This document shows, piece by piece, positions 50,797 to 64,000 of a DNA stretch of 64,000 nt. The stretch is from Candidatus Latescibacterota bacterium (GTDB lineage: Bacteria > Latescibacterota > UBA2968 > GCA-2709665). The notes beneath the pieces were generated by a model, which had not been told where the DNA came from, ran no database searches, and worked only from the letters and a program-made list of their open reading frames with translations. Numbering within the stretch: the stretch's first letter is position 1; each line of letters begins with the position of its first letter. The DNA lies in the NCBI GenBank assembly GCA_965226795.1, contig CBDDDZ010000004.1:608001-672000 (forward strand), given 5' to 3'. The position numbers and the translations under genes were made by a program.

Positions 50797-50825
50797 TTGA
50801 CACTCGTGATATGATTGTTTAATGT
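50797..50825 (+). promoter_or_regulatory. Promoter of the aromatic supra-operon
   Basis: TTGACA-17 bp-TAATGT. Confidence 0.75.
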
Positions 50826-50910
50826 TAGACCGTTCCTGTCGGCGTGGTCGTTCGGCGTAAGCAGGCGTCGGTGCGAGGCTGGCAGGAACCTGGATCATGG
50901 AGGATCGAAC

Positions 50911-51018
50911 GTGACGGATCATGGTCGGAACGGATTTCCCTGGCGTGGATATTTTTATCGCTCCTACCGGTGGTATTACCGGGAGGTCGCGGAACGTCAT
51001 GTCTGCCCACGAGAGTAA
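50911..51018 (+). CDS. Aromatic-rich attenuator leader peptide (35 aa)
   Basis: GGAGG 7 nt before GTG; MTDHGRNGFPWRGYFYRSYRWYYREVAERHVCPRE. Confidence 0.8.
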   Translation: MTDHGRNGFPWRGYFYRSYRWYYREVAERHVCPRE

Positions 51019-51040
51019 ACCGTTGACAGAGTCGGGAAAT

Positions 51041-51072
51041 GAGCCGTGGGCATCTGCTCACGGTTTTTTTTT
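51041..51072 (+). terminator. Attenuator terminator
   Basis: CCGTGGGC/GCTCACGG stem plus 9 T; its 5' arm can alternatively pair with 51004-51011. Confidence 0.85.
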
Positions 51073-51213: not shown

Positions 51214-52704
51214 GTGAATCTCGTGAGCACACCCGATTTGAAAACGCTAAAAACGCTGGCTGAAGGCCGGGGGGTGGTTCCGATTTCCAGGGAAATCCTG
51301 GGAGATACGGAAACCCCGGTATCCGCGTACCTCAAACTGCGGCACAGGAGTCCCTACAGCTTTCTTTTTGAGAGCGTGGAAGGGGGAGAGAAGATCGGGC
51401 GCTATTCTTTCCTGGGAGTGGAGCCGTTTCTTGCGTTTCGGTCGTGGAAATCCCGGATAGAGGTGGAGGATCTGAAGCGGGGTGAGGTCCGTGTATATGA
51501 AGGGTCGCCCATTGCCGAACTCAGGCGTCTACTGAAAAAATACCGTTCAGCGCAGTTGGATGGACTGCCCAGATTTACCGGAGGGGCTGTGGGCTATGTG
51601 GGCTACGACGCAATCCGGTTGGTTGAAAATATCCCCGACAGCACGCGCGACGACTACGGTCTGCCAGACGTCGTATTGCTTTTCTACGATACGCTTCTTG
51701 GCTTCGACAACGTTCGACAGAAGATCCATCTGATTTCAAACGTGCATACCTCCGGGGATATTGAAGAGAATTACCGGGCGGCGGAGGCGCGAATCGATGT
51801 GCTGGAACGGGCCCTGTGCGGGCCGATTCCCACGAACGGCGTTCCGGAAAGTGTGCCCCGGCGAGGAGCGCGCGCGATCCGGTCGAATACGGAGCGGTCC
51901 GTCTTTTTGGACAAGGTGCGGCGCTGCAAGGAGTATATCGTGGCGGGCGATATTTTTCAGGTCGTACTTTCGCAGCGCTTTGAGACCGAGATAACCGTCG
52001 GATCACTGGACATTTACCGCGCGCTTCGCACGGTGAATCCGTCTCCATACATGTTCCATCTGGATTTGAAAGAGGTTCAGCTTATCGGCGCATCGCCGGA
52101 GCTGCTGGTTAGGGTCGAGAACGGCGTCGTGCAAGTGCGGCCGATAGCGGGCACACGGTGGAGGGGGGCTACGGAAGAGGAGGATTCCGCTCTCGAGGCG
52201 AATTTGCTGGCAGACGAAAAGGAACGTGCGGAACACATTATGCTTCTGGACCTGGGTCGGAACGACGTGGGGCGGGTATCCCGTTACGATACGGTACGGG
52301 TTACGGAGCAGATGACGATTGAGCGTTATTCTCATGTGATGCATATTGTGTCCAATGTTCAAGGGCATCTCAAAGATGGCGTGGATGCCCTGGATGCGCT
52401 TTTTGCCTGTTATCCGGCAGGCACGGTTTCCGGCGCGCCCAAGATCCGCGCGATGGAGATTATCGACGAACTGGAACCTACACGCCGTGGACCGTACTCG
52501 GGGGCGGTTGGCTATATTGACTTTTCGGGCAACATGGATACGTGCATTGCCATTCGTACGATGGTTTTGCAAGGCAGCAACGCCTATGTCCAGGCAGGCG
52601 GGGGAATTGTGTTCGATTCCGTGCCGGAGAGCGAGCACCAGGAAACAGTAAATAAAGCGAAGGCGCTGTTTAAAGCGGTGGAATTGGCGGAAGGTGCGAT
52701 GTAG
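51214..52704 (+). CDS. trpE: Anthranilate synthase component I
   Basis: FQVVLSQR, NPSPY, PIAGT, PAGTVSGAPK. Confidence 0.97.
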   Translation: MNLVSTPDLKTLKTLAEGRGVVPISREILGDTETPVSAYLKLRHRSPYSFLFESVEGGEKIGRYSFLGVEPFLAFRSWKSRIEVEDLKRGEVRVYEGSPIAELRRLLKKYRSAQLDGLPRFTGGAVGYVGYDAIRLVENIPDSTRDDYGLPDVVLLFYDTLLGFDNVRQKIHLISNVHTSGDIEENYRAAEARIDVLERALCGPIPTNGVPESVPRRGARAIRSNTERSVFLDKVRRCKEYIVAGDIFQVVLSQRFETEITVGSLDIYRALRTVNPSPYMFHLDLKEVQLIGASPELLVRVENGVVQVRPIAGTRWRGATEEEDSALEANLLADEKERAEHIMLLDLGRNDVGRVSRYDTVRVTEQMTIERYSHVMHIVSNVQGHLKDGVDALDALFACYPAGTVSGAPKIRAMEIIDELEPTRRGPYSGAVGYIDFSGNMDTCIAIRTMVLQGSNAYVQAGGGIVFDSVPESEHQETVNKAKALFKAVELAEGAM

Positions 52705-52753
52705 TATCAGGGATATATACTGCCATTCTTCAACGATCACGTTTCATTGACCT

Positions 52754-53317
52754 ATGATTCTGGTAATCGACAATTACGATTCGTTCACGTACAATCTGGT
52801 TCAGTATCTGGGCGAGTTGGGTGCGCGGATGGAGGTGTTTCGGAACGATCAGATCGAATTGGACCAGATCTGCGCATACCGACCTGAGAAGATGGTGATT
52901 TCGCCCGGGCCATGTACACCGAACGAGGCGGGAATCTCCGTGGATCTGATCCGGCGGTTTAGCGGAGAGATTCCGATGCTGGGCGTCTGTCTGGGGCATC
53001 AGTGCATCGGACAGGCCTTCGGCGGCACCGTCGTGAGGGCGCCGGCGATTCTACACGGGAAAGTGTCCGAGATTCATCACGACGAACGTTCGATTTTCAC
53101 GGGGATGTCACAGCCCTTTATCGCCACGCGATACCATTCCCTGATTGTCGAACGGGACAGCCTGCCGGACTGCCTCGAGGTTACCGCGCAGACACACGAC
53201 GGAACAATAATGGGGTTGCGGCACAGGGAGTATCCGGTTGAGGGCGTGCAGTTTCATCCGGAGTCGATTCTGACGGCTGAGGGCAAAGTGTTGTTAGAAA
53301 ATTTCCTGAATGGCTGA
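52754..53317 (+). CDS. trpG: Anthranilate synthase component II
   Basis: DNYDSF, SPGP, GVCLGHQ, QFHPES. Confidence 0.97.
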
Positions 53318-53372
53318 ATTCGTGGATCGGAAAGCTGGACCGGATCTCTGTTTACAGGCTGGGGAGATGGCT

Positions 53373-54392
53373 ATGGCGATACAGGATGCGATTGCGAAGC
53401 TGATTGAGGGACAGGACCTGACACGTGACCAGATGATCGGGACGATGGATCAGATTATGTCGGGTGGGGCGACGGACGCGCAGATCGGTGGGTTTCTGGT
53501 GGCTCTGCGTGTCAAGGGGGAGACAGTTGAGGAGATCGCGGGCGCCGCGGAGGTGATGCGGGAGAAGGCAACCCGGGTCGTGACGCGACACACCACGGTG
53601 GTCGATACATGCGGTACGGGGGGGGATGGGTCAGGAACGTTCAATATATCGACGGCCGCGGCGTTTGTGGCGGCCGGTGCCGGGCTGTGTGTGGCCAAAC
53701 ATGGGAACCGCGCGGCGTCCAGCCTGTGTGGCAGTGCGGATGTTTTGAAGGAACTGGGAGTAAATATCGAAGCATCGCCGGAGACGGTGGGGCGGTGTCT
53801 GGATGAGGTGGGCATCGGTTTCCTGTTTGCTCCGGCTCTGCACGGTGCCATGAAATATGCGATTGGACCCAGACGCGAAGTCGGCGTGCGCACGGTTTTC
53901 AACGCTCTGGGGCCGCTGACCAATCCTGCAGGCGCAACCCGACACCTGATCGGGGTATATGGTCGATCGCTTACCGAGAGGCTGGCCGAAGTGTTGCGTA
54001 CATTGGAATCAGAGCGGGCGTTTGTGGTACACGGGTCGGACGGACTGGACGAGATGACGACGACCGGGCCAACACAGGTGAGCGAGTTGAAGAACGGTAG
54101 TGTATCCACGTATGAGATCAGACCCGGGGATCTGGGCATTGCAAGGGCGGCGGCAGATGATCTGGCAGGGGGTAACGCCGAGACCAATGCGTCGATTCTG
54201 CGAAGGGTGCTGCATGGCGAGCCCGGTCATCGGCTGGACATTGTCCTGCTGAATGCGGCAGCCGCCATCGTAGCGGGGGGCGCCGTGGATGATCTGACGT
54301 CCGGTATGGAACTGGCCAGGGAGACCGTGGAATCGGGGCGGGCAATGGACAAACTGGAAAAACTGAAACTCGCCTCCGACGAGGGCAGCTGA
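53373..54392 (+). CDS. trpD: Anthranilate phosphoribosyltransferase
   Basis: DTCGTGGDG, NIST, KHGNR, GPLTNP. Confidence 0.97.
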   Translation: MAIQDAIAKLIEGQDLTRDQMIGTMDQIMSGGATDAQIGGFLVALRVKGETVEEIAGAAEVMREKATRVVTRHTTVVDTCGTGGDGSGTFNISTAAAFVAAGAGLCVAKHGNRAASSLCGSADVLKELGVNIEASPETVGRCLDEVGIGFLFAPALHGAMKYAIGPRREVGVRTVFNALGPLTNPAGATRHLIGVYGRSLTERLAEVLRTLESERAFVVHGSDGLDEMTTTGPTQVSELKNGSVSTYEIRPGDLGIARAAADDLAGGNAETNASILRRVLHGEPGHRLDIVLLNAAAAIVAGGAVDDLTSGMELARETVESGRAMDKLEKLKLASDEGS

Positions 54393-54478
54393 TACCTGGC
54401 GATTTCGCCACTCACGCCCTGAACGTACCCCATGAACGAGATAATCGGGGTTCGCCCGGCGCAACGAAGACGGGAAGC

Positions 54479-55270
54479 ATGGCCACGATCCTGGATGAGA
54501 TTATCGCATATAAACGGCGTGTTGTGGCCGAGGCGAAACAACGGGTCTCACCCGAGGAGTTACAGACGCGGGCGGACCTTGCCCGTGAGCCGGGCTCGTT
54601 GATGGACGGCCTGACAGCCGCCGAGGATATCGCGCTCATAGCCGAGATCAAAAAGGCATCTCCGTCAAAAGGGGTGATTAGAGAAGATTTCGATCCGGTG
54701 GAAATCGGCCGGGCTTACGAGGAGAACGGCGCGTCGGCAATTTCCGTGCTGACGGATGTAAAGTATTTTCAGGGCTCCGACGAGAGTCTGACGGCGGTAA
54801 GCGAAGCCGTGGAATTGCCGGTGCTCCGGAAGGATTTCGTGGTTGATCCCTATCAGATCCATGAAGCCAGAACAATCGGTGCGGCGGCGGTTCTGCTCAT
54901 TGTTTCAGCGCTCTCGCAACGTGAATTGGCAGGGCTGCTCGCTGTTTGCAGGGACTCGAAATTGGACGCGCTGGTAGAAGTTCACACCAGAGAGGAAGCG
55001 AAGATGGCGCTGGACGCGGGAGCGGATCTTGTGGGGGTGAATAACCGCGACTTGAAGACGTTTCAAACGGACCTGCGAACCACATTCGACCTGATTGAAC
55101 ACCTGCCGGAAGATCTGGTAATCGTAAGCGAGAGCGGCATCGAGACCAGGGACCACGTCGTCCGATTGAGGGATGCCGGCGTGGATGCGGTGCTTGTCGG
55201 GGAACATCTGATGCGTCATCCCGATGTCGGTCGGACGCTTCGAACGCTGCTGGGGAAGGAAGGCGGCTGA
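54479..55270 (+). CDS. trpC: Indole-3-glycerol phosphate synthase
   Basis: EIKKASPSKG, LRKDF, NNRDL, SESG. Confidence 0.97.
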   Translation: MATILDEIIAYKRRVVAEAKQRVSPEELQTRADLAREPGSLMDGLTAAEDIALIAEIKKASPSKGVIREDFDPVEIGRAYEENGASAISVLTDVKYFQGSDESLTAVSEAVELPVLRKDFVVDPYQIHEARTIGAAAVLLIVSALSQRELAGLLAVCRDSKLDALVEVHTREEAKMALDAGADLVGVNNRDLKTFQTDLRTTFDLIEHLPEDLVIVSESGIETRDHVVRLRDAGVDAVLVGEHLMRHPDVGRTLRTLLGKEGG

Positions 55271-55278
55271 TTCAGACC

Positions 55279-55911
55279 ATGGTTCGGGTGAAGATTTGCG
55301 GCATCACGAACCCGGAGGATGCCCATTTTTCGGTTGCCCAGGGCGTGGACGCCCTGGGGTTCATCTTTTATGAGCCCAGCCCGCGTTACGTGCATCCTGA
55401 CCGCGTGAGCGAGATCGTGTCGGAGTTGCCGCCCTTCGTGACGCCCGTAGGGGTTTTCGTGAACACGGCCAGGGAGGAGATCCTGGGAATCGTGCGGTCG
55501 ACGGGGCTTCGGGCGGTCCAACTGCACGGCGACGAAACGCCGGCCGATTGCCAGGGGTATCCTTTTCCGGTCATCCGGGCATTGCGGGTCGGCGAGGGAT
55601 TCAAGCCTGCGTCGCTGGGCGATTATCCGGTAAACACGTTTCTGTTGGATACGGCAAAAAAAGGATGGTACGGAGGCACGGGAGAGACCTTTGACTGGCG
55701 GGTCGCAAGGGCGGCTGCGGCACACGGTCGGATCATTCTGTCGGGGGGGATTGATCCGCGAAACGTGGCGGAGGCGGTCCGAACGGTGAATCCGTATGCC
55801 GTGGACTGCGGCAGTGGCGTTGAGGCCGCGCCAGGCAGGAAGGACCACAACAGAATCGTGGAATTTCTCGAGACGCTTCGCTCCGTAACAAGTGTTCTGT
55901 CCCGGAAATAG
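55279..55911 (+). CDS. trpF: Phosphoribosylanthranilate isomerase
   Basis: KICGIT, QLHGDE, GGTGETFDW. Confidence 0.97.
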   Translation: MVRVKICGITNPEDAHFSVAQGVDALGFIFYEPSPRYVHPDRVSEIVSELPPFVTPVGVFVNTAREEILGIVRSTGLRAVQLHGDETPADCQGYPFPVIRALRVGEGFKPASLGDYPVNTFLLDTAKKGWYGGTGETFDWRVARAAAAHGRIILSGGIDPRNVAEAVRTVNPYAVDCGSGVEAAPGRKDHNRIVEFLETLRSVTSVLSRK

Positions 55912-55924
55912 ATTGCCGGATTCC
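55892..55924. mobile_element. MITE left end only, overlapping the trpF stop
   Basis: GTGTTCTGTCCCGGAAATAGATTGCC matches the left end of copies 1 and 3. Confidence 0.85.
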
Positions 55925-55978
55925 GAGACCATCAGCGTTCTTGAACCCGCTAACCGAATCGATCTGGAGCCAAACATA

Positions 55979-57241
55979 TTGGATATCTTGGAAGATCTGG
56001 ACTTCCGGGGGCACGTTTTTCAGGTAACGGACGCCAGCGGACTCAAGGCGCGGCTCGACCAGGGGCCGATAACCCTTTATTCGGGGTTCGACCCCACGGC
56101 AGACAGCCTGCACGCCGGCAACCTGATTCCAATTCTGGGACTGCGGCGGTTTCAATTGGCCGGGCATCACGCAATCGGCCTTATCGGGGGCGGAACCGGC
56201 TTGATTGGCGATCCGAGCGGCAGCAAGGAAGAACGCCCGTTGAACCCGCCCGACATAGTCGCGGCATACACCGAGAAGCTGACAGAACAACTGGCCAAGT
56301 TCCTGGATTTCGAAACAGGAACGAATCCCGCCCAGGTGGTCTGCAATATGGGCTGGCTTTCCGAGCTCAAGGCAATTGACTTCCTGAGGGACACGGGCAA
56401 GCATTTCTCCATGGGTTATATGCTGGCGAAAGAGTCTGTGGCTTCCCGGCTGGAATCCGGAATATCGTTCACCGAATTCAGCTATATGGTCATTCAGGCA
56501 TATGATTTCATGGAGTTGTTTCGGACGCGAGGATGCGAGTTGCAAATTGGCGGGAGCGATCAATGGGGTAATATCACAGCGGGTATAGAGTTGATCCGGC
56601 GTCGGCTGGGCGAGCAGGCCCATGGACTGACGTTTCCGCTGCTTCAGAAAGCCGACGGGTCCAAGTTCGGCAAGACGGCATCCGGTACCGTCTGGCTGGA
56701 CACGGGAAGAACAACGCCCTATCAGTTCTACCAGCACTGGATCAATACGGATGACAGGGATGTCGTGAGGTTTCTGAAGCTGTTTACCTTTCTCTCAAAG
56801 GATGAGATTCGAAATCTGGAATTGGACGTGGCACAACACCCCGAGAAGCGAGAGGCACAGCGGGTGCTGGCCGAGGAGGTCACCACATTCGTACACGACA
56901 GGTCCGCCACCGACAGGGCGCGGCGGATTTCCGAGGCATTGTTTTATGGGGATCTGCGGGATCTGAGCGCGCAAGAGATAGAGGAAGGGTTCAGCGACGT
57001 GCCGTCTCATTCGCTCAATGGCGTTTCAGGAGTGGGTCTGGTCAATTTGCTGGTAGATGTCCGCATTTCAACTTCCATGCGCCAGGCGCGAGAAGACATC
57101 AGGTCCGGCGCGATTCATATCAATGGCCTGCGTTGCACGGATATGGGGCGGATCCTTGAACCTTCCGAGAGACTCGCAGGGAAATACCTGGTGGTTCGCC
57201 GGGGCAAACGCCGCTACTTTCTGGTGCGCTGGAACAATTGA
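55979..57241 (+). CDS. tyrS: Tyrosine--tRNA ligase
   Basis: GFDPTADSLHAGN, GGSDQWGN, KFGKT; TTG start after GGAG inferred. Confidence 0.97.
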   Translation: MDILEDLDFRGHVFQVTDASGLKARLDQGPITLYSGFDPTADSLHAGNLIPILGLRRFQLAGHHAIGLIGGGTGLIGDPSGSKEERPLNPPDIVAAYTEKLTEQLAKFLDFETGTNPAQVVCNMGWLSELKAIDFLRDTGKHFSMGYMLAKESVASRLESGISFTEFSYMVIQAYDFMELFRTRGCELQIGGSDQWGNITAGIELIRRRLGEQAHGLTFPLLQKADGSKFGKTASGTVWLDTGRTTPYQFYQHWINTDDRDVVRFLKLFTFLSKDEIRNLELDVAQHPEKREAQRVLAEEVTTFVHDRSATDRARRISEALFYGDLRDLSAQEIEEGFSDVPSHSLNGVSGVGLVNLLVDVRISTSMRQAREDIRSGAIHINGLRCTDMGRILEPSERLAGKYLVVRRGKRRYFLVRWNN

Positions 57242-57337
57242 TGGGCGGGTGTGTGGCCGCTTATGCTTATCGGAATGCAAATCAGGACATGATAATTCGG
57301 AACTCGGCAGGAAAAACAAAAGGAGAGGATTCCTTCC

Positions 57338-58315
57338 ATGAAAGCACCCTGGATTACCTTTCGGCCGGAACTCAAAGTACTTGATTGTACGATTCGAGAC
57401 GGCGGATTGATGAATGACCATCATTTCACCGATGATTTCGTGAAGGCAGTTTACGTAACCTGCGTTGAAGCAGGGGTCGATTATATGGAAATCGGGTACC
57501 GAAACTCCAAGGAGATGTTTCCAAAAGGACAGTTCGGACCCTTCCGACACAGTGACGAAGAAGATATCCGAAAGATTACGGGCGATCACGACCCTGAAAC
57601 GACCGGCCTGAAGCTCGCCATCATGGCCGATGCGGGCAAGAGCGATTGGGCTGAAGACATCCTGCCGGCCAGCGAGAGCGTGGTCAGCATGGTACGCGTA
57701 GCCTGCTATGTCGAGCAGATCCCTGAAACCGTCGAAATGCTGTGCGACGCACATGAAAAAGGATATGAAACCAGTTGTAACATTATGGCCATTTCGACGG
57801 TGCAGGAGGTCGAGATTGACCAGGCGCTGGAAGTCCTGATACAAACGCCGGTTGGAACAATATGCGTTGTAGATAGTTTCGGTGCATTGTACCGCGAGCA
57901 GGTGGATATGCTCATTCGGAAGTATATGGAAGCCGTCAGTGGAACGGGCAAAGAAGTGGGCATTCATGCGCACAACAACCAGCAACTGGCGTTCGCCAAT
58001 ACCCTGGAAGCGCTCATTCTGGGCGCTAACCGCGTTGATGCCACGGTGGACGGACTTGGCCGCGGCGCGGGAAATTGCCCGCTGGAATTGCTGCTCGGTT
58101 TCCTGCGCAATCCCAAGTTCAAAATTCGACCTGTCTACGAGCTGTTGGAAGACCATTTTGTCAAATTGCGCGGTGAACTGACGTGGGGGCCCCTCATTCC
58201 GTACAATATCACGGGTCAGCACAACCAGCATCCCCGCTCGGCAATGGCGCTTCTGGACGGGGACGACCGAAATCGTTATCTGGATTTCTACGATCAGGTG
58301 ATGAGGGAAATTTAA
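57338..58315 (+). CDS. DRE-TIM (HMGL-like) aldolase, 4-hydroxy-2-oxovalerate aldolase-like
   Basis: [24 protein letters not shown]. Confidence 0.85.
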
Positions 58316-58445
58316 TCGCCGGCGCCCGCGCTTCGGCAGTCCGCGAGAAAACCGCAGAGGTGGGAACGCCCGCCGAAGCGAGGGTCCGGAACGACGACGG
58401 CGGCTGAGTCCGCCTATGTCACCAAACCTAAATGGAATGGAAACA

Positions 58446-59662
58446 ATGGCACTTCTCAAGGCAGATGGATCCAACCGGACATGGCCCGACTCCGGGGGGC
58501 ATTTCGGACCCTACGGCGGGCGCTACGTACCGGAAACGTTGATGCCGTTGTTGGAGGACCTGGAGGCAGCCTACCGCGACGCGAAGGACCGTCCGGATTT
58601 TCAGGAGGAACTGGGCCGTTATCTCAGGGAATTTGTGGGAAGGCCGACGCCACTCTATTTTGCGCAGCGACTGACCGCCGAACTGGGCGGAGCCAGAATC
58701 TATCTGAAGCGGGAGGACCTCGCGCACACCGGCGCGCACAAAATCAACAATACGATACGATGGGGCAGGTCCTGCTTGCCAGGCGGATGGGCAAAACGCG
58801 GATCATTGCGGAAACGGGCGCAGGACAACACGGTGTGGCGACAGCAACCGTGGCGGCAATGTTCGGAATGGACTGCGAGATTTACATGGGCACCGAAGAC
58901 ATGGACCGGCAGGCGTTGAACGTGTTTCGTATGCGGCTTCTGGGGGCGAAAGTGACGGGTGTGGATTCGGGCAGCAGGACTCTGAAAGATGCGATCAACG
59001 AAGCCATCCGGGACTGGGTGACGAATGTGGAGGATACATTTTATATTTTCGGATCCGTCCTGGGACCTCATCCTTATCCGATGATCGTGCGCGATTTTCA
59101 GCGGGTAATCGGGGTGGAAACGCGCGAACAGATCCTGCAGGCCGAAGGCCGGTTGCCGGAATATCTGATCGCATGCGTCGGCGGCGGCAGCAATTCGATC
59201 GGGCTGTTTCACGCCTTTTTGGAGGACACGGAAGTGCGGATGGTTGGTGTCGAAGCGGGAGGGCATGGAATTGCCTCCGGCGACCATGCGGCGCGATTCC
59301 AGGGCGGGGATGTGGGCGTGCTGCACGGGGCAAGGATTTACCTCTTGCAGGACGAGAACGGGCAGATCGCGCTGACCCATTCGGTGTCCGCGGGCCTGGA
59401 TTATTCGGGTGTCGGGCCCGAGCACTGCCTACTGAGGGATGCGGGTCGGATCGAGTATGTGTACGCAACGGACGACGAGGCCCTGAAGGCCTTCCAGCTG
59501 TTGAGTCGTACGGAGGGAATCATCCCTGCACTGGAAAGCGCGCATGCGATCGCTTACGTGTCCAGAGCAGCGTCCGAAATGGGCAAGGATGCCGTTATCG
59601 TCGTGAATCTTTCAGGCCGTGGTGATAAAGACGTACAGCATGCGGCGAAGTACGTGGACTAG
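58446..59662 (+). pseudogene. trpB: Tryptophan synthase beta chain, frameshifted by a 5-bp duplication (or assembly error)
   Basis: [16 protein letters not shown] in one frame; [21 protein letters not shown] in another; ACGAT duplicated at 58752-58761. Confidence 0.9.
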
Positions 59663-59715
59663 GCGGTATTGGACCGATCGTTTTCACGTCGGAATCGAAG
59701 AATGGGGTCGATCGG

Positions 59716-60528
59716 ATGACAAGGATCGGGAAGCGTTTCGAAGCGTTGAAGAGAGCACACAGGACCGGATTTATAGCCTACATCACGGCGGGAGATCCGG
59801 ACCTGGCCACCACCCGCAAACTGGTGCCGGAGTTGGATCGGCGCGGGGTGGACATTCTCGAGTTGGGCGTGCCGTTCTCCGATCCACTGGCGGACGGGCC
59901 GGAGATCCAGCGGGCATCGCAGCGGGCCCTGCGGCATCGGGTGTCAATCAGCGATGTGCTGGATCTGGTGGCGGACCTGCGCCGGGAGACGGAGATACCG
60001 ATCGTGCTGTTTACGTATTTCAATCCGATGCACCGTTATGGTCTGAAACGGCTCGTCGACCGGGCGGCCGAAGCGGGGGTGGACGGTATTCTGGTGCTGG
60101 ATCTTCCGCCCGAGGAGGCAGCCGAGTACAAGGTTCTGATGTCGGAACGGGGATTGGATACGATTTTTCTAATCGCGCCAAATAGCCGTGAGGATCGCAT
60201 TCAACGGATTGCATCTCATAGCAGCGGGTTTGTGTATTACGTGTCACGCACAGGTGTAACAGGCGAACGGGACAGCCTGGAGGTGACGCTCGGGGCAAAA
60301 GTGGCGACCATCCGACGCCACACGTCGCAGCCGGTTGCGGTGGGATTCGGAATTTCGACGCCCGAACAATCCAGGGAGGTCGCAGGTTATGCCGACGCAG
60401 TCGTCGTCGGCAGCGCAATCGTGCGGCGTATTGCCCAGTGGCAAGCCGAACCGGATCTCGTTTCACAAATTGGGGCATTTGTGGAAGAATTAGTGCAACC
60501 GTTGAAGGGAGCATCCGATGGATCTTGA
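59716..60528 (+). CDS. trpA: Tryptophan synthase alpha chain
   Basis: ELGVPFSDPLADGP, SRTGVTG, VGFGIS. Confidence 0.97.
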   Translation: MTRIGKRFEALKRAHRTGFIAYITAGDPDLATTRKLVPELDRRGVDILELGVPFSDPLADGPEIQRASQRALRHRVSISDVLDLVADLRRETEIPIVLFTYFNPMHRYGLKRLVDRAAEAGVDGILVLDLPPEEAAEYKVLMSERGLDTIFLIAPNSREDRIQRIASHSSGFVYYVSRTGVTGERDSLEVTLGAKVATIRRHTSQPVAVGFGISTPEQSREVAGYADAVVVGSAIVRRIAQWQAEPDLVSQIGAFVEELVQPLKGASDGS

Positions 60529-60811
60529 AGACTGGCGCAAGGAAATCGACGCCCTGAATCAACAACTGTTGGAGCTTCTGAATAAGCGAGCCGAATGCGC
60601 ACTTGAGATCGGCAGGATCAAACAGGCAATCGAGCAACCTGTTTATGCGCCGGAGCGGGAGACATCGATCCTGAACCGAATCCGTCAACTGAACACGGGG
60701 CCCCTGGCCGACGAAGCGGTGCAACGGATATTTCAGCAGATAATCGATGAGTCAAGGCGGCTGGAACAGGAACACGGCGAACGGGAAACGGGGGGCACGA
60801 AACACCTCTGA
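60518..60811 (+). CDS. Chorismate mutase (AroQ, monofunctional)
   Basis: RKEID...LLNKR...IGRIK...PERE. Confidence 0.92.
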   Translation: MDLEDWRKEIDALNQQLLELLNKRAECALEIGRIKQAIEQPVYAPERETSILNRIRQLNTGPLADEAVQRIFQQIIDESRRLEQEHGERETGGTKHL

Positions 60812-60882
60812 ATCCGTTTGTGGAACCGGCCGCAACGGCAAACCATATTGACGGTCGCTATAGGAACCGGAGCTGAAGGCAC

Positions 60883-61911
60883 ATGGCGTTCAGAAGAATC
60901 CTGAAGATACCCACACCCGAAGCCGTGCTGGAAAAGATGTCGCTTCCAAAGGAGCTGAAGACCGTAAAGGAGGAACGCGACGCGGAAATCAGGGACATTT
61001 TCGCCCGCCGGAGCGATAAGTTTCTGCTGGTGATCGGCCCATGTTCGGCGCACAACGAAGATGCCGTATGTGAATACGTATCCAGGTTGGCGAAACTGCA
61101 GGAGGCCGTCCGGGAAAAGCTGGTTCTGGTGCCGCGCATCTATACCAACAAACCCCGCACAACCGGCGAGGGGTACAAGGGCATGGGGCATCAGCCGGAC
61201 CCGCGCAAGGCGCCGGACATATCCGAAGGTATTTATGCGGTTCGTCAGATGCATATCCGGGCTGTCCAGGAGTCCCACCTGACGGCGGCCGACGAAATGC
61301 TGTACCCGGGCAACCTGCCGTATGTCGAGGATCTGCTGAGTTATATAGCCGTGGGTGCACGCTCCGTGGAAAATCAACAGCACCGGTTGACCTGTAGCGG
61401 CGTCGGCGTCCCCGTTGGAATGAAAAACCCGACGGGAGGAGATCTTTCGGTAATGCTGAACGCGATCCATGCCTCGCAGATTCCCCACGTCTTCATTTAT
61501 AACGGTTGGGAGGTGGGCACCGACGGCAATCTCCTGACACACGCAGTGCTTCGGGGCGCCGTGGATGTTAACGGGCGCAGTATTCCGAACTATCACTTCG
61601 AAGACCTCATGTACGCGGCGGAACTCTATCGGCAGCGGCAGCTTGCCAATACCACAATCGTTGTGGATACGAATCACAATAACTCCGGCAAGCAGTTCAG
61701 TGAACAGCCCAGGATCGGGTTGGAGGTGATACGCAGCCGGCGGAGTTCAGAGATTTTAAACGACATGATCCGCGGGTTGATGGTGGAGAGTTATCTGGAT
61801 GAGGGCTCACAGAATGTAAATGACGGCGTGTTCGGCAAATCCATTACCGATCCGTGCCTGGGGTGGAAAGATTCCGAGGCGTTTGTCAAAGAACTGGCGG
61901 AAAGGATATGA
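60883..61911 (+). CDS. DAHP synthase, class I-alpha
   Basis: IGPCS, KPRT, VGARS, MKNPT, DTNHNNS, SITDPC. Confidence 0.95.
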   Translation: MAFRRILKIPTPEAVLEKMSLPKELKTVKEERDAEIRDIFARRSDKFLLVIGPCSAHNEDAVCEYVSRLAKLQEAVREKLVLVPRIYTNKPRTTGEGYKGMGHQPDPRKAPDISEGIYAVRQMHIRAVQESHLTAADEMLYPGNLPYVEDLLSYIAVGARSVENQQHRLTCSGVGVPVGMKNPTGGDLSVMLNAIHASQIPHVFIYNGWEVGTDGNLLTHAVLRGAVDVNGRSIPNYHFEDLMYAAELYRQRQLANTTIVVDTNHNNSGKQFSEQPRIGLEVIRSRRSSEILNDMIRGLMVESYLDEGSQNVNDGVFGKSITDPCLGWKDSEAFVKELAERI

Positions 61912-61989
61912 AAGCGTACGGGTTCTGGAATCCGGAGGAGATTGGAATGTCTTCTAGACGCTTTTGCCGGGTCTTCCGAGGATAACGGT

Positions 61990-63102
61990 ATGGCGAATGA
62001 TCCTCCGTTTGCGCGTGAGACGATCGCATTTGTTGGTGTTGGGTTGATCGGCGGATCTCTTGGTGTGGCACTCAAGGGTCTGGGTATCGGCCGAAGCATC
62101 GTTGGCATCAGCAGGCAGGAGACGCTGGATGCAGCCCTCGAGTTGAATGTAATCGACGCAGGCTATCGCTATGAGGACCTCGAAAGGGGGATTGGCGAAG
62201 CGGCGCTGGTTTTCCTGTGTACACCCATTGTACGTATTCTGGACCTTCTGCCACAGGTGCTGGGGGCGGCGCGGAAGGGTGCGGTCGTGACCGATGTGGG
62301 CAGCACCAAGCACGCGATTGTTTCCGCGGCGACGGCCCATCAACGTGATGGCGTGTATTTTGTGGGCGGGCACCCGATGGCCGGGTCGGAACATCGCGGG
62401 GTAAGCGCGGCGGATCCATTCCTGTTTCAGAACGCAATTTATGTGTTGACGCCGTCACCGGACACGCCCGAATTCGTGGTCGAAAAGCTCGCGCGCCTCG
62501 TAAGGGCGCTCGGAGCGAGACCCATGAGGATGACTCCTCAGGAACACGACAGGGCGGCGGCGGCGGTGAGTCACCTGCCACAGATGATGGCCACAAGCCT
62601 GGTGTCCATGATCGGACGGATGACCGAGGTCGAAGGGTTGCCGATAAGGATGGCGGCGGGTGGGTTTCGGGATCTGACACGCATTGCATGCAGCCCGTAT
62701 GAAATGTGGCGGGATATCTGCCATACGAACGCGGCCCCGATCCGTGAGATGATCGATCTGTATATCGAGTCGCTGACAGCGATGCGCGGAGCAGTGGATC
62801 ATGACCGGCTGGAGCAGGCATTTGTCTACGCCAATCGGGTACGCGGGCAGATTCCGAAGGACTCCAAGGGGTTTTTGCATCCTCTATTCGAAATTCTCCT
62901 GGTCGCGGAAGACAGACCGGGCGTGATTGCCGACGTCGCTCAGACCCTGGCCGGGAAAAATATTAATATCAACGACATCGAGGTATTGAATGTACGGGAG
63001 GGGGAAGGAGGCACCATCCGCATCGGGTTCGATTCGCGTCCATGCGCGGATCAGGCTGTAGACGTGCTGGGGAAGGCGGGATACAACGTCAGGCTGAGAT
63101 AA
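61990..63102 (+). CDS. tyrA: Prephenate dehydrogenase with C-terminal ACT domain
   Basis: GVGLIGGS, DVGSTK, GHPMAG, SHLP, FRDLTRIA, DRPGV. Confidence 0.93.
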   Translation: MANDPPFARETIAFVGVGLIGGSLGVALKGLGIGRSIVGISRQETLDAALELNVIDAGYRYEDLERGIGEAALVFLCTPIVRILDLLPQVLGAARKGAVVTDVGSTKHAIVSAATAHQRDGVYFVGGHPMAGSEHRGVSAADPFLFQNAIYVLTPSPDTPEFVVEKLARLVRALGARPMRMTPQEHDRAAAAVSHLPQMMATSLVSMIGRMTEVEGLPIRMAAGGFRDLTRIACSPYEMWRDICHTNAAPIREMIDLYIESLTAMRGAVDHDRLEQAFVYANRVRGQIPKDSKGFLHPLFEILLVAEDRPGVIADVAQTLAGKNININDIEVLNVREGEGGTIRIGFDSRPCADQAVDVLGKAGYNVRLR

Positions 63103-63181
63103 ACGGAAGGATCCGGAACGGGAAACGATGGAACGAAAGAGATCGCTATCCGTCCTTTTGTGACTCGATTTTGAAGAAGGC

Positions 63182-64000
63182 GTGGCTTTGAAATTCGCGG
63201 GTTCAGTAATTTCCCGGGACACGATCAGTCCCTCGCCGGGGCTTGTGGGGGCGTGCGACCTCCCCGGCGATGCCAGCATGTCGATTATGGCCCTTGTGCT
63301 GTCGTCAATATCCGATGGAATCTCACGGATTCACAGGTGTTCCCAACGACGCGAAGTCAAGCGAACCGGAGAATTGCTGGCGGAACTCGGGATTTCGGTG
63401 GCGTGGGACGGTGAGACCGCAACGGTGACCGGCGGCCACATGGAGGCGCCGGCCGACGTGCTGCGCGTGGGTGGGTCCCTTGTTCTGTTTTCCTGTCTTG
63501 CGGGATTGCTGTCCAATGCGCCCTTTGTGACCAGACTTTCCGGGGTTCGGGCGGATGCCGACGTCGACCGGCTTTTCGACGGGCTCCGCGCGTTGGGCGC
63601 ACACGTGAACATTCCGGTTGAAGACCGGACATCGGCGGGTGTCGGAGGGGGTAAGTTAACGCCCGGATCCTTCCGTGTCGGAGCTCCGGATATAGCGGTG
63701 AAGTGTGGAATGCTTATGGCCGGGCTGGGTGTGGGGGGACCGGTTGAACTGGTACAGGACACGGGCGGGGATGACGACCTGGAAGTTTTGCTGCAAGCAG
63801 CAGGATGCGGGCTGAAAAAGAGCCGGATGAAGGGCGCCGGAGGTCATCGGTTGTTGTTGGAAGGACCGGTACGGCTCCGTGGCGTTACACACGAGTTGCC
63901 GGGCTGCTCGGATGCGGGGCTGTTTCTTGCCCTGGCCGCGGCGATGTTGAAACGGTCTGAGTTGACCGTAACCCATTTCGGAATGGATTCGAGAAGCCGC
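63182..64000 (+). CDS. AroA (EPSP synthase)-fold protein with degenerate active-site motifs (runs off window)
   Basis: Not in the ORF track. Open frame from GTG 63182: ...LVGACDLPGDASMSIMALVLSSISDG...CLAGLL...LRALGA...AVKCGMLMAGL...LPGCSDAG; follows tyrA. Confidence 0.75.
   Translation, partial: MALKFAGSVISRDTISPSPGLVGACDLPGDASMSIMALVLSSISDGISRIHRCSQRREVKRTGELLAELGISVAWDGETATVTGGHMEAPADVLRVGGSLVLFSCLAGLLSNAPFVTRLSGVRADADVDRLFDGLRALGAHVNIPVEDRTSAGVGGGKLTPGSFRVGAPDIAVKCGMLMAGLGVGGPVELVQDTGGDDDLEVLLQAAGCGLKKSRMKGAGGHRLLLEGPVRLRGVTHELPGCSDAGLFLALAAAMLKRSELTVTHFGMDSRSR

Follow-up and report, generated by a model that had tools for sequence, protein, structure and literature searches.

A predicted tyrosine-weighted leader-peptide attenuator ahead of a trp-tyrS-aro gene cluster in Candidatus Latescibacterota

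The DNA upstream of trpE in a Candidatus Latescibacterota genome carries what is likely to be a ribosome-mediated transcription attenuator, located before a cluster that joins trp, tyrS, and aro genes. The element resides in a stretch of 64,000 nucleotides that was analyzed as a whole (the window). Its sequence features suggest a sensor that is weighted toward Tyr, that also senses Trp, that is less certain to sense Phe, and that is probably multivalent. A bolder proposal is that this one leader opens the whole aromatic pathway upon a shortage of Trp-, Tyr-, or Phe-tRNA, and we place its chances slightly below even.

All parts of the element are found on the forward strand. A predicted sigma-70-like promoter (50797-50825) is formed by TTGACA (50797-50802), a 17-nt spacer, and TAATGT (50820-50825). 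A strict promoter scan calls no promoter at 50797-50825, and the -10 sequence TAATGT agrees at 3 of 6 positions. However, the motifs named in the initial annotation are present, and the promoter gains support because the pattern is conserved upstream of leaders in related genomes. A TTG-anchored -35/TA...T pattern precedes 66 of 78 leaders and 22 of 22 in the window's family (f1), versus 0.9% of random 165-nt windows. A Shine-Dalgarno sequence, GGAGG (50899-50903), is positioned 7 nt 5′ of a GTG start codon (50911), which opens a 35-codon leader ORF, VTDHGRNGFPWRGYFYRSYRWYYREVAERHVCPRE (50911-51018), that closes with TAA at 51016-51018. The purine-rich Shine-Dalgarno sequence and GTG start are shared by 14 of the 15 genus genomes, and the fifteenth has ATG one codon later. 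Leader codons 9-23 (50935-50979) make up a regulatory block in which nine of the 15 codons are aromatic (5 Tyr, 2 Trp, and 2 Phe), and Arg accounts for 7 of the 35 leader codons.

Past the last aromatic codon by 24 nt is the putative antiterminator strand, TGCCCACG (segment 2, 51004-51011), which is the exact complement of CGTGGGCA (segment 3, 51045-51052) and covaries with it. Segments 3 and 4 compose a predicted intrinsic terminator (51041-51072), with a hairpin at 51041-51066 and a run of nine T residues at 51064-51072. The trpE ORF starts at 51214, leaving a gap of 142 nt from the end of the hairpin and T run. A possible segment 1, or protector/pause strand (50941-50953), is predicted to pair with 50998-51009 when no ribosome is present. 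The GGAGG/GTG-initiated ORF of 35 codons, its nine aromatic codons in 15, and the terminator with nine T residues were all found where the initial annotation had placed them.

Such a concentration of aromatic codons is rare in this genome, in which 3 of 72,336 short ORFs have nine aromatic codons in 15. Nine short ORFs genome-wide have at least eight in 15, and this leader is the only one followed by a terminator. At the level of sequence and models, four features of a classical attenuator are found here: a leader ORF with a ribosome-binding site, clustered codons for end products, an exclusive terminator and antiterminator, and a matching ribosome-position geometry, the last from a masking model only.

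Expression was examined by using assembled RNA contigs from four of 21 listed runs. In run X1, an identical contig covers 50791-51036 at a mean depth of 55, versus about 8-11 for trpE contigs; its ends are loose, and it begins 5′ of the -35 sequence. A contig from run X6, which belongs to another study, covers 50850-51031 at a depth of 11.9, versus about 2-6 for trpE. Both leader contigs end just 5′ of the hairpin. Run X2 is without a leader contig and holds one that bridges 51037 into trpE. Because contigs cannot show ends, strand, or level, we do not count the depth of the leader contigs as evidence.

The leader is widespread in the phylum. A close trpE is present in 103 of 168 phylum genomes, of which 100 were examined, and 5 of these had too little upstream DNA, leaving 95 testable. 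A short Trp-containing ORF plus a terminator precedes trpE in 79 of the 95, spread over eight families with different flanking sequences. The same leader and terminator are found in 49 of 49 testable genomes of the order, represented by families f1 (22/22) and f2 (27/27). Elsewhere the counts are 3/3 (f3), 19/19 (f4), 3/3 (f5), 1/1 (f8), 1/1 (f13), and 3/5 (f14). The 16 genomes that do not have the leader belong to f9 (2), f10 (10), f12 (2), and f14 (2). In f12, trpE is placed after trpA, and the DNA 5′ of trpE in f9 and f10 looks coding by eye. At locus L167 the script chose a wrong ORF, and this row is excluded from later counts.

Some variation surrounds this core arrangement. A second promoter-like sequence is located 20-28 nt past the terminator in 4 of 78 leaders (L016, L017, L125, and L126), and none is found 3′ of the terminator in this window. 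In those four leaders, a promoter behind the terminator could bypass the attenuator. Operons of family f4 (L129, L136, L141, and L156) have the order trpEGDC-trpS-chorismate mutase-tyrA-aroA-like-aroE, followed by a putative ArgRS-like gene, and no match to trpF, trpB, or trpA was found within the stretches fetched for these four loci. Trp-rich leader ORFs with terminators that look similar by eye also precede trpE in other phyla (L063, L075, L088, L106, and L123, from Acidobacteriota, Thermodesulfobacteriota, Armatimonadota, Deltaproteobacteria, and Binatia records). The leaders at L063 and L106 hold Tyr codons as well.

The initial annotation had stressed the complement between segment 2 and the terminator arm. 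This match is exact, but its 8 bp alone are within chance when the best duplex between the terminator arm and the whole leader is compared with whole-leader shuffles (p = 0.12 here, and p < 0.05 in 5 of 73 leaders). The complement becomes convincing only because its position is fixed and because it covaries. In a position-fixed window, which was picked after the data had been seen, pairing with the terminator arm is stronger than in shuffled sequences for 44 of 68 distinct leaders (p = 0.005 here). The mean energy is -15.6 kcal/mol, versus -10.6 for shuffled sequences and -8.6 for an adjacent control window. Moreover, the arm of a leader's own family pairs better with segment 2 than foreign arms do in f3, f4, and f5. 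For example, segment 2 of f4 yields -16.4 with its own arm versus -12.8 kcal/mol with the f1 arm, and that of f5 yields -13.1 versus -9.5. Segment 2 of f1 pairs equally well with f1 and f2 arms, which are nearly identical.

Covariation was assessed in a MAFFT alignment of 40 diverse leaders that were chosen by hand, with the structure derived from the same sequences. In the antiterminator, 87.6% of cells are paired and double-sided changes occur at 5 of 8 pairs. There are 42 double-change cells, versus 15.8 in shuffles (0 of 500), and slid partners are at most 50% paired. One pair of this helix is not formed in 17 of the 40 rows, and five rows are apparently shifted by two columns, which counts against the antiterminator. 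In the terminator, 97.2% of cells are paired, with double changes at 6 of 9 pairs. At alignment column 91, a G-to-A change is accompanied by C-to-U changes in both its antiterminator and its terminator partner. These counts represent few evolutionary events among kin. Nevertheless, compensatory changes are present in both stems, as the initial annotation had proposed to check. The antiterminator DNA (TGCCC/CGTCC) is read as C-P, M-P-T, L-P, V-P, A-S, or C-V, or lies past the stop codon. Because this strand is read in differing frames, it is the RNA rather than the peptide that is conserved there.

The predicted geometry fits control by ribosome position. In our masking model, the footprint edge is assumed to be 12-15 nt past the start of the A site and the RNA is folded up to the terminator loop. 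For this window, the antiterminator is predicted with the ribosome up to codon 27-28 and not beyond codon 29. Over 77 leaders, the antiterminator is possible at 548 of 599 aromatic codons and never at the stop codon, although the latter result follows from how the mask is built. The median spacer between the aromatic block and segment 2 is 24 nt in f1, f2, and f5, although their sequences are unrelated, and is 17 nt in f4 and 9 nt in f3. At two f2 loci (L174 and L177), the leader ends 6-7 nt 5′ of the antiterminator strand and the block spacing is still 22 nt.

In the full-length RNA, the terminator is always favored at equilibrium; switching would therefore depend on kinetics, as it does in the classical model that PMC1183508 outlines. 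Before strand 4 is made, the equilibrium fold without a ribosome favors the antiterminator, and for this reason super-attenuation is not predicted. In 46 of 73 leaders, segment 2 pairs with upstream sequence at P > 0.5, the partner differing from leader to leader; in several rows the motif anchor took a neighboring hexamer. A 1:2 protector helix is predicted in this window, whereas clear conservation of it was not found across the 73 leaders. Mutually exclusive antiterminator and terminator folds are nevertheless predicted here, as the initial annotation had expected.

Given these features, a simple sequence of events can be proposed. When charged tRNA is short, a ribosome translating the leader would stall at its Tyr, Trp, or, less surely, Phe codons. 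With the ribosome stalled there, segment 2 would be available for pairing with segment 3, the terminator would be blocked, and RNA polymerase would continue into the trp-tyrS-aro cluster. If translation instead proceeds to the last codons, the ribosome would cover segment 2, whereupon the terminator would form and transcription would end at 51064-51072. Each of the amino acids would elicit its response by this same route. The logic of the initial annotation, wherein a ribosome at the stop codon masks the antiterminator and one stalled on an aromatic codon frees it, is supported in these models by geometry, conservation, and covariation.

The putative controlled cluster occupies 51214-64000 of the forward strand and continues beyond the window, with aroE next. 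Its genes were named by NCBIfam matches, several of which score below the curated cut-offs. The order is trpE, trpG, trpD, trpC, trpF, tyrS, an aldolase-like gene, trpB, trpA, and chorismate mutase, followed by a DAHP synthase-like gene, a prephenate dehydrogenase-like gene (tyrA), and an aroA-like gene. NCBIfam therefore bears out the downstream list of the initial annotation (trp, tyrS, chorismate mutase, DAHP synthase, and tyrA). None of the 12 intergenic gaps between trpE and aroA was seen to contain a terminator with a U tract, and this span is presumably co-transcribed as one transcript. The trpB frame is shifted in this assembly by a 5-nt duplication (58749-58758) relative to three relatives from the genus, which may be an assembly error or a real break. 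The gene between tyrS and trpB (57338-58315) is HMGL-type aldolase-like, with a weak match to 4-hydroxy-2-oxovalerate aldolase; it is present in the window's genus and in many f2 genomes and is absent from other f1 genera.

Several known regulators were sought in the same genome (G000, 95.9% complete). TrpR was not found. The TRAP family (PF02081) gave 0 matches in a search that detected its Bacillus subtilis positive control, and a TRAP-controlled trp leader was rejected on this basis. The genome holds a sole T-box match, which precedes pheS (L237:1501-1799; G000:C5:682482-682780), and none is at the trpE leader, for which a T-box (RF00230) was accordingly rejected. The pheS element is a full-length match of 69 bits, below the 93-bit cut-off (E about 1e-14), with UUC at the specifier position and a long insertion. 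Rfam gave 0 matches at gathering score, whether for the window or for four additional loci, including none to the Trp_leader model RF00513, and at E <= 10 it returned two chance-level matches (E about 5) and no leader family. With no match to TrpR, TRAP, or a T-box at the trpE leader, none of these explains its control. The pheA gene is outside the cluster, about 78 kb upstream (L204:1378-3515, G000:C4). Its neighbors, named by eye, are a deacetylase-like and an aminotransferase-like ORF, with no space for a leader.

The codon content of the leader offers clues to which amino acids might be sensed. Trp, Tyr, and Phe are all present in 22 of 22 (f1), 25 of 25 (f2), and 3 of 3 (f3) distinct leader peptides. 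Leaders from f1-f3 have 8-10 aromatic residues in frame (8.5-10 in f1 and f2) versus fewer than 3 in the other frames, and hence the enrichment for Trp, Tyr, and Phe that the initial annotation proposed to look for in relatives holds throughout these families. In all 15 genomes of the genus, each of the five Tyr columns holds either Tyr, encoded by TAT or TAC, or Phe. Phe15 never varies; Phe9 is found in 9 of the genomes, Trp11 in 13, and Trp21 in 10, with at least one Trp per leader. Tyr runs vary in length by whole codons among relatives. There is no third-position bias in the core codons of the genus (6 synonymous and 13 non-synonymous variant codons).

Two natural controls are available. 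A second leader candidate precedes trpS (L205:598-735, G000:C3) and has a 25-codon ORF with tandem Trp codons, a promoter-like sequence, and a terminator. It is present in 19 of 20 f1 loci (G019 retains the terminator without the ORF) and in 0 of 10 f2 loci. In the same 19 genomes, the mean codon counts of trpS leaders are 2.5 for Trp, 0.9 for Tyr, and 0.7 for Phe, versus 1.5, 4.9, and 2.2 for trpE leaders. Relative to its trpS counterpart, the trpE leader has more Tyr codons in 19 of 19 genomes and more Phe codons in 15, and it has fewer Trp codons in 11 and more in none; its Arg codons likewise exceed those of the trpS leader in 19 of 19. The other control is a gene exchange, wherein the f4 operon has trpS where f1-f3 operons have tyrS. 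Tyr codons outnumber Trp codons in 29 of 29 leaders of tyrS operons and 0 of 18 leaders of trpS operons, with 2 loci having neither gene, 10 being too short to judge, and kin not being independent. An f3 genome without tyrS has 2 Tyr codons, versus 4 in its two f3 sisters. The tyrS/trpS contrast amounts to about one, and at most two, independent evolutionary events. Still, the codon mix of the leader appears to track the synthetase gene inside the operon, and the paired trpE and trpS leaders together with the tyrS/trpS swap point to codon-specific sensing. A genome scan for His, Leu, Thr/Ile, Ile/Leu/Val, Cys, Phe, and Met leaders with terminators returned 38 candidates, of which the trpS leader is the only one that is meaningful by eye.

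A response to Trp seems highly likely and one to Tyr nearly as likely, whereas the prospects for Phe are only somewhat better than even. Support for Phe is weakest because pheA is outside the cluster and pheS has its own T-box-like leader. Any effect of Phe could be confined to the shared steps (DAHP synthase, AroA, AroE, and chorismate mutase). The claim in the initial annotation that one sensor covers all three amino acids is thus plausible but unequal in its parts: Tyr has the strongest comparative support, Trp is represented by 1-2 codons, and Phe is weakest in the genus.

A real attenuator might nevertheless respond to one amino acid only, Trp or another, with the other aromatic codons being structural. 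There is precedent for codons that do not sense, including the inert Tyr codon of aroR described in PMC11802643 and the Streptomyces coelicolor ilvB leader, in which codon changes are reported to have no effect (PMC1262725). Both cases indicate that leader codons need not sense. In addition, the leader's Tyr and Arg codons fall in predicted hairpins, and the terminator stems that accompany Trp leaders before trpE in other phyla are similar-looking by eye. We consider a single input unlikely, in that the Trp positions are the least conserved aromatics in the genus (13/15 and 10/15), whereas the Tyr columns stay aromatic while switching between TAT and TAC, and the Tyr runs vary by whole codons. 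Moreover, the Trp-centered trpS leader in the same cells holds few Tyr or Phe codons. It is less probable still that the leader reads general translation speed or a wider tRNA set that includes Arg. The share of Arg codons, their excess over trpS leaders, the putative ArgRS-like gene further downstream, and the prediction of an antiterminator for every ribosome position up to codon 27-28 could all be accommodated by this idea. However, the aromatic enrichment is far above the genome background and tracks the operon synthetase, the Arg codons provide G and C for the predicted helices, and f3 leaders have only 3 Arg.

Because C-P recurs near the leader end in many relatives, one might also envision a TnaC-like arrest peptide whose C-terminal Cys-Pro detects a free amino acid inside the ribosome tunnel. 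This we regard as very improbable, since the underlying DNA is read in differing frames or past the stop codon, and arrest at the leader end would favor the terminator. A TnaC-type arrest peptide was rejected for want of conserved peptide residues near the stop codon. Finally, the hairpin might be a plain terminator of upstream transcription, accompanied by an ORF and a complement that arose by chance. The silent promoter scan and the chance-level 8-bp match agree with this reading, but it is scarcely credible and already largely refuted by conservation over eight families with different flanks, by covariation, and by the genome background. A multivalent attenuator weighted toward Tyr is therefore the reading that we carry forward.

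The thr (Thr plus Ile) and ilvGMEDA (Ile plus Leu plus Val) attenuators are multivalent. As in our candidate, a single leader contains codons for several of the amino acids in which a branched pathway ends; the pathway is a different one, and here the codon mix appears to follow the aminoacyl-tRNA synthetase gene of the operon. Both leaders are named as attenuators in PMC1183508. The trpL, pheL, and pheST leaders of Escherichia coli are similar in having a short ORF with cognate codons and a 2:3 antiterminator that competes with a 3:4 terminator, as outlined in PMC11802643 and PMC1183508, and trpL is likewise placed before trpE. In contrast, the candidate has three types of aromatic codons with Tyr dominant and heads trp, tyrS, and shikimate genes together; it also differs from trpL in matching no Rfam leader family (Trp_leader, RF00513, is named in PMC2659441) and in residing in a genome where TrpR was not found. 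The nearest case is aroR of Corynebacterium glutamicum, a Phe-Tyr-Phe leader before the DAHP synthase gene aroF that, in the account PMC11802643 gives of Neshat et al. 2014, responds to Phe and not to Tyr. Both have mixed aromatic codons before a DAHP synthase gene, but aroR has three and no Trp in its motif, whereas this leader has nine, five of them Tyr, and heads a trp and tyrS operon. An Acholeplasma element before aroF, uORFC-13-1, also pairs a predicted uORF with a terminator ahead of a DAHP synthase gene, in a different phylum and with a U-run that encodes at least one Phe only (PMC8632094).

In Firmicutes, tyrS and the trp/aro supraoperons are described as being under T-box or TRAP control (PMC1262725, PMC1173090). 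The targets and the use of transcription attenuation are the same, but the sensor here would be an ORF, with no T-box match at the site and no TRAP gene found. RNA-level control by tyrosine is assigned to T-boxes in PMC1262725. A predicted Shewanella aroF element is listed in PMC2659441 as an 'attenuator sensing tyr-tRNA', citing an E. coli paper, and predicted attenuators are noted in PMC1173090 before aromatic supraoperons, including that of Desulfovibrio vulgaris, without leader peptides. A full-text literature search, whose scope lay outside the main comparative attenuator surveys, returned no leader with Trp, Tyr, and Phe together and no attenuator paper on this lineage. Those surveys (Vitreschak 2004, Lopatovskaya 2010, and Merino 2008) are said to predict some mixed Phe/Tyr leaders, and for this reason the absence of such leaders from print is not established. 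The initial annotation knew of no characterized leader with this combination; this agrees with the search, but the published mixed leader aroR (PMC11802643) had been missed. The mechanism is that of the textbooks, and the mixed aromatic codon form is likely to be unusual.

If the prediction is true, the aromatic branch would complete the set of multivalent attenuators. It would also provide a leader that responds to Tyr, a role that PMC1262725 gives to T-boxes and that is absent in aroR as PMC11802643 describes it. A true three-input sensor would be a first example of a leader peptide that senses tyrosine, built on a Trp-attenuator scaffold in which the codon weights changed as tyrS displaced trpS in the operon. 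With about 80 natural variants (Trp-, Tyr-, or Phe-heavy) and a Trp-only paralogue within the same cells, the weight of each input could be tested against codon number and position. If true, the leader would also constitute a compact, protein-free sensor part for strains that make aromatic amino acids. For the organisms themselves, the candidates described here suggest that an uncultured phylum combines leader peptides (for trpE and trpS) with a T-box-like element (for pheS).
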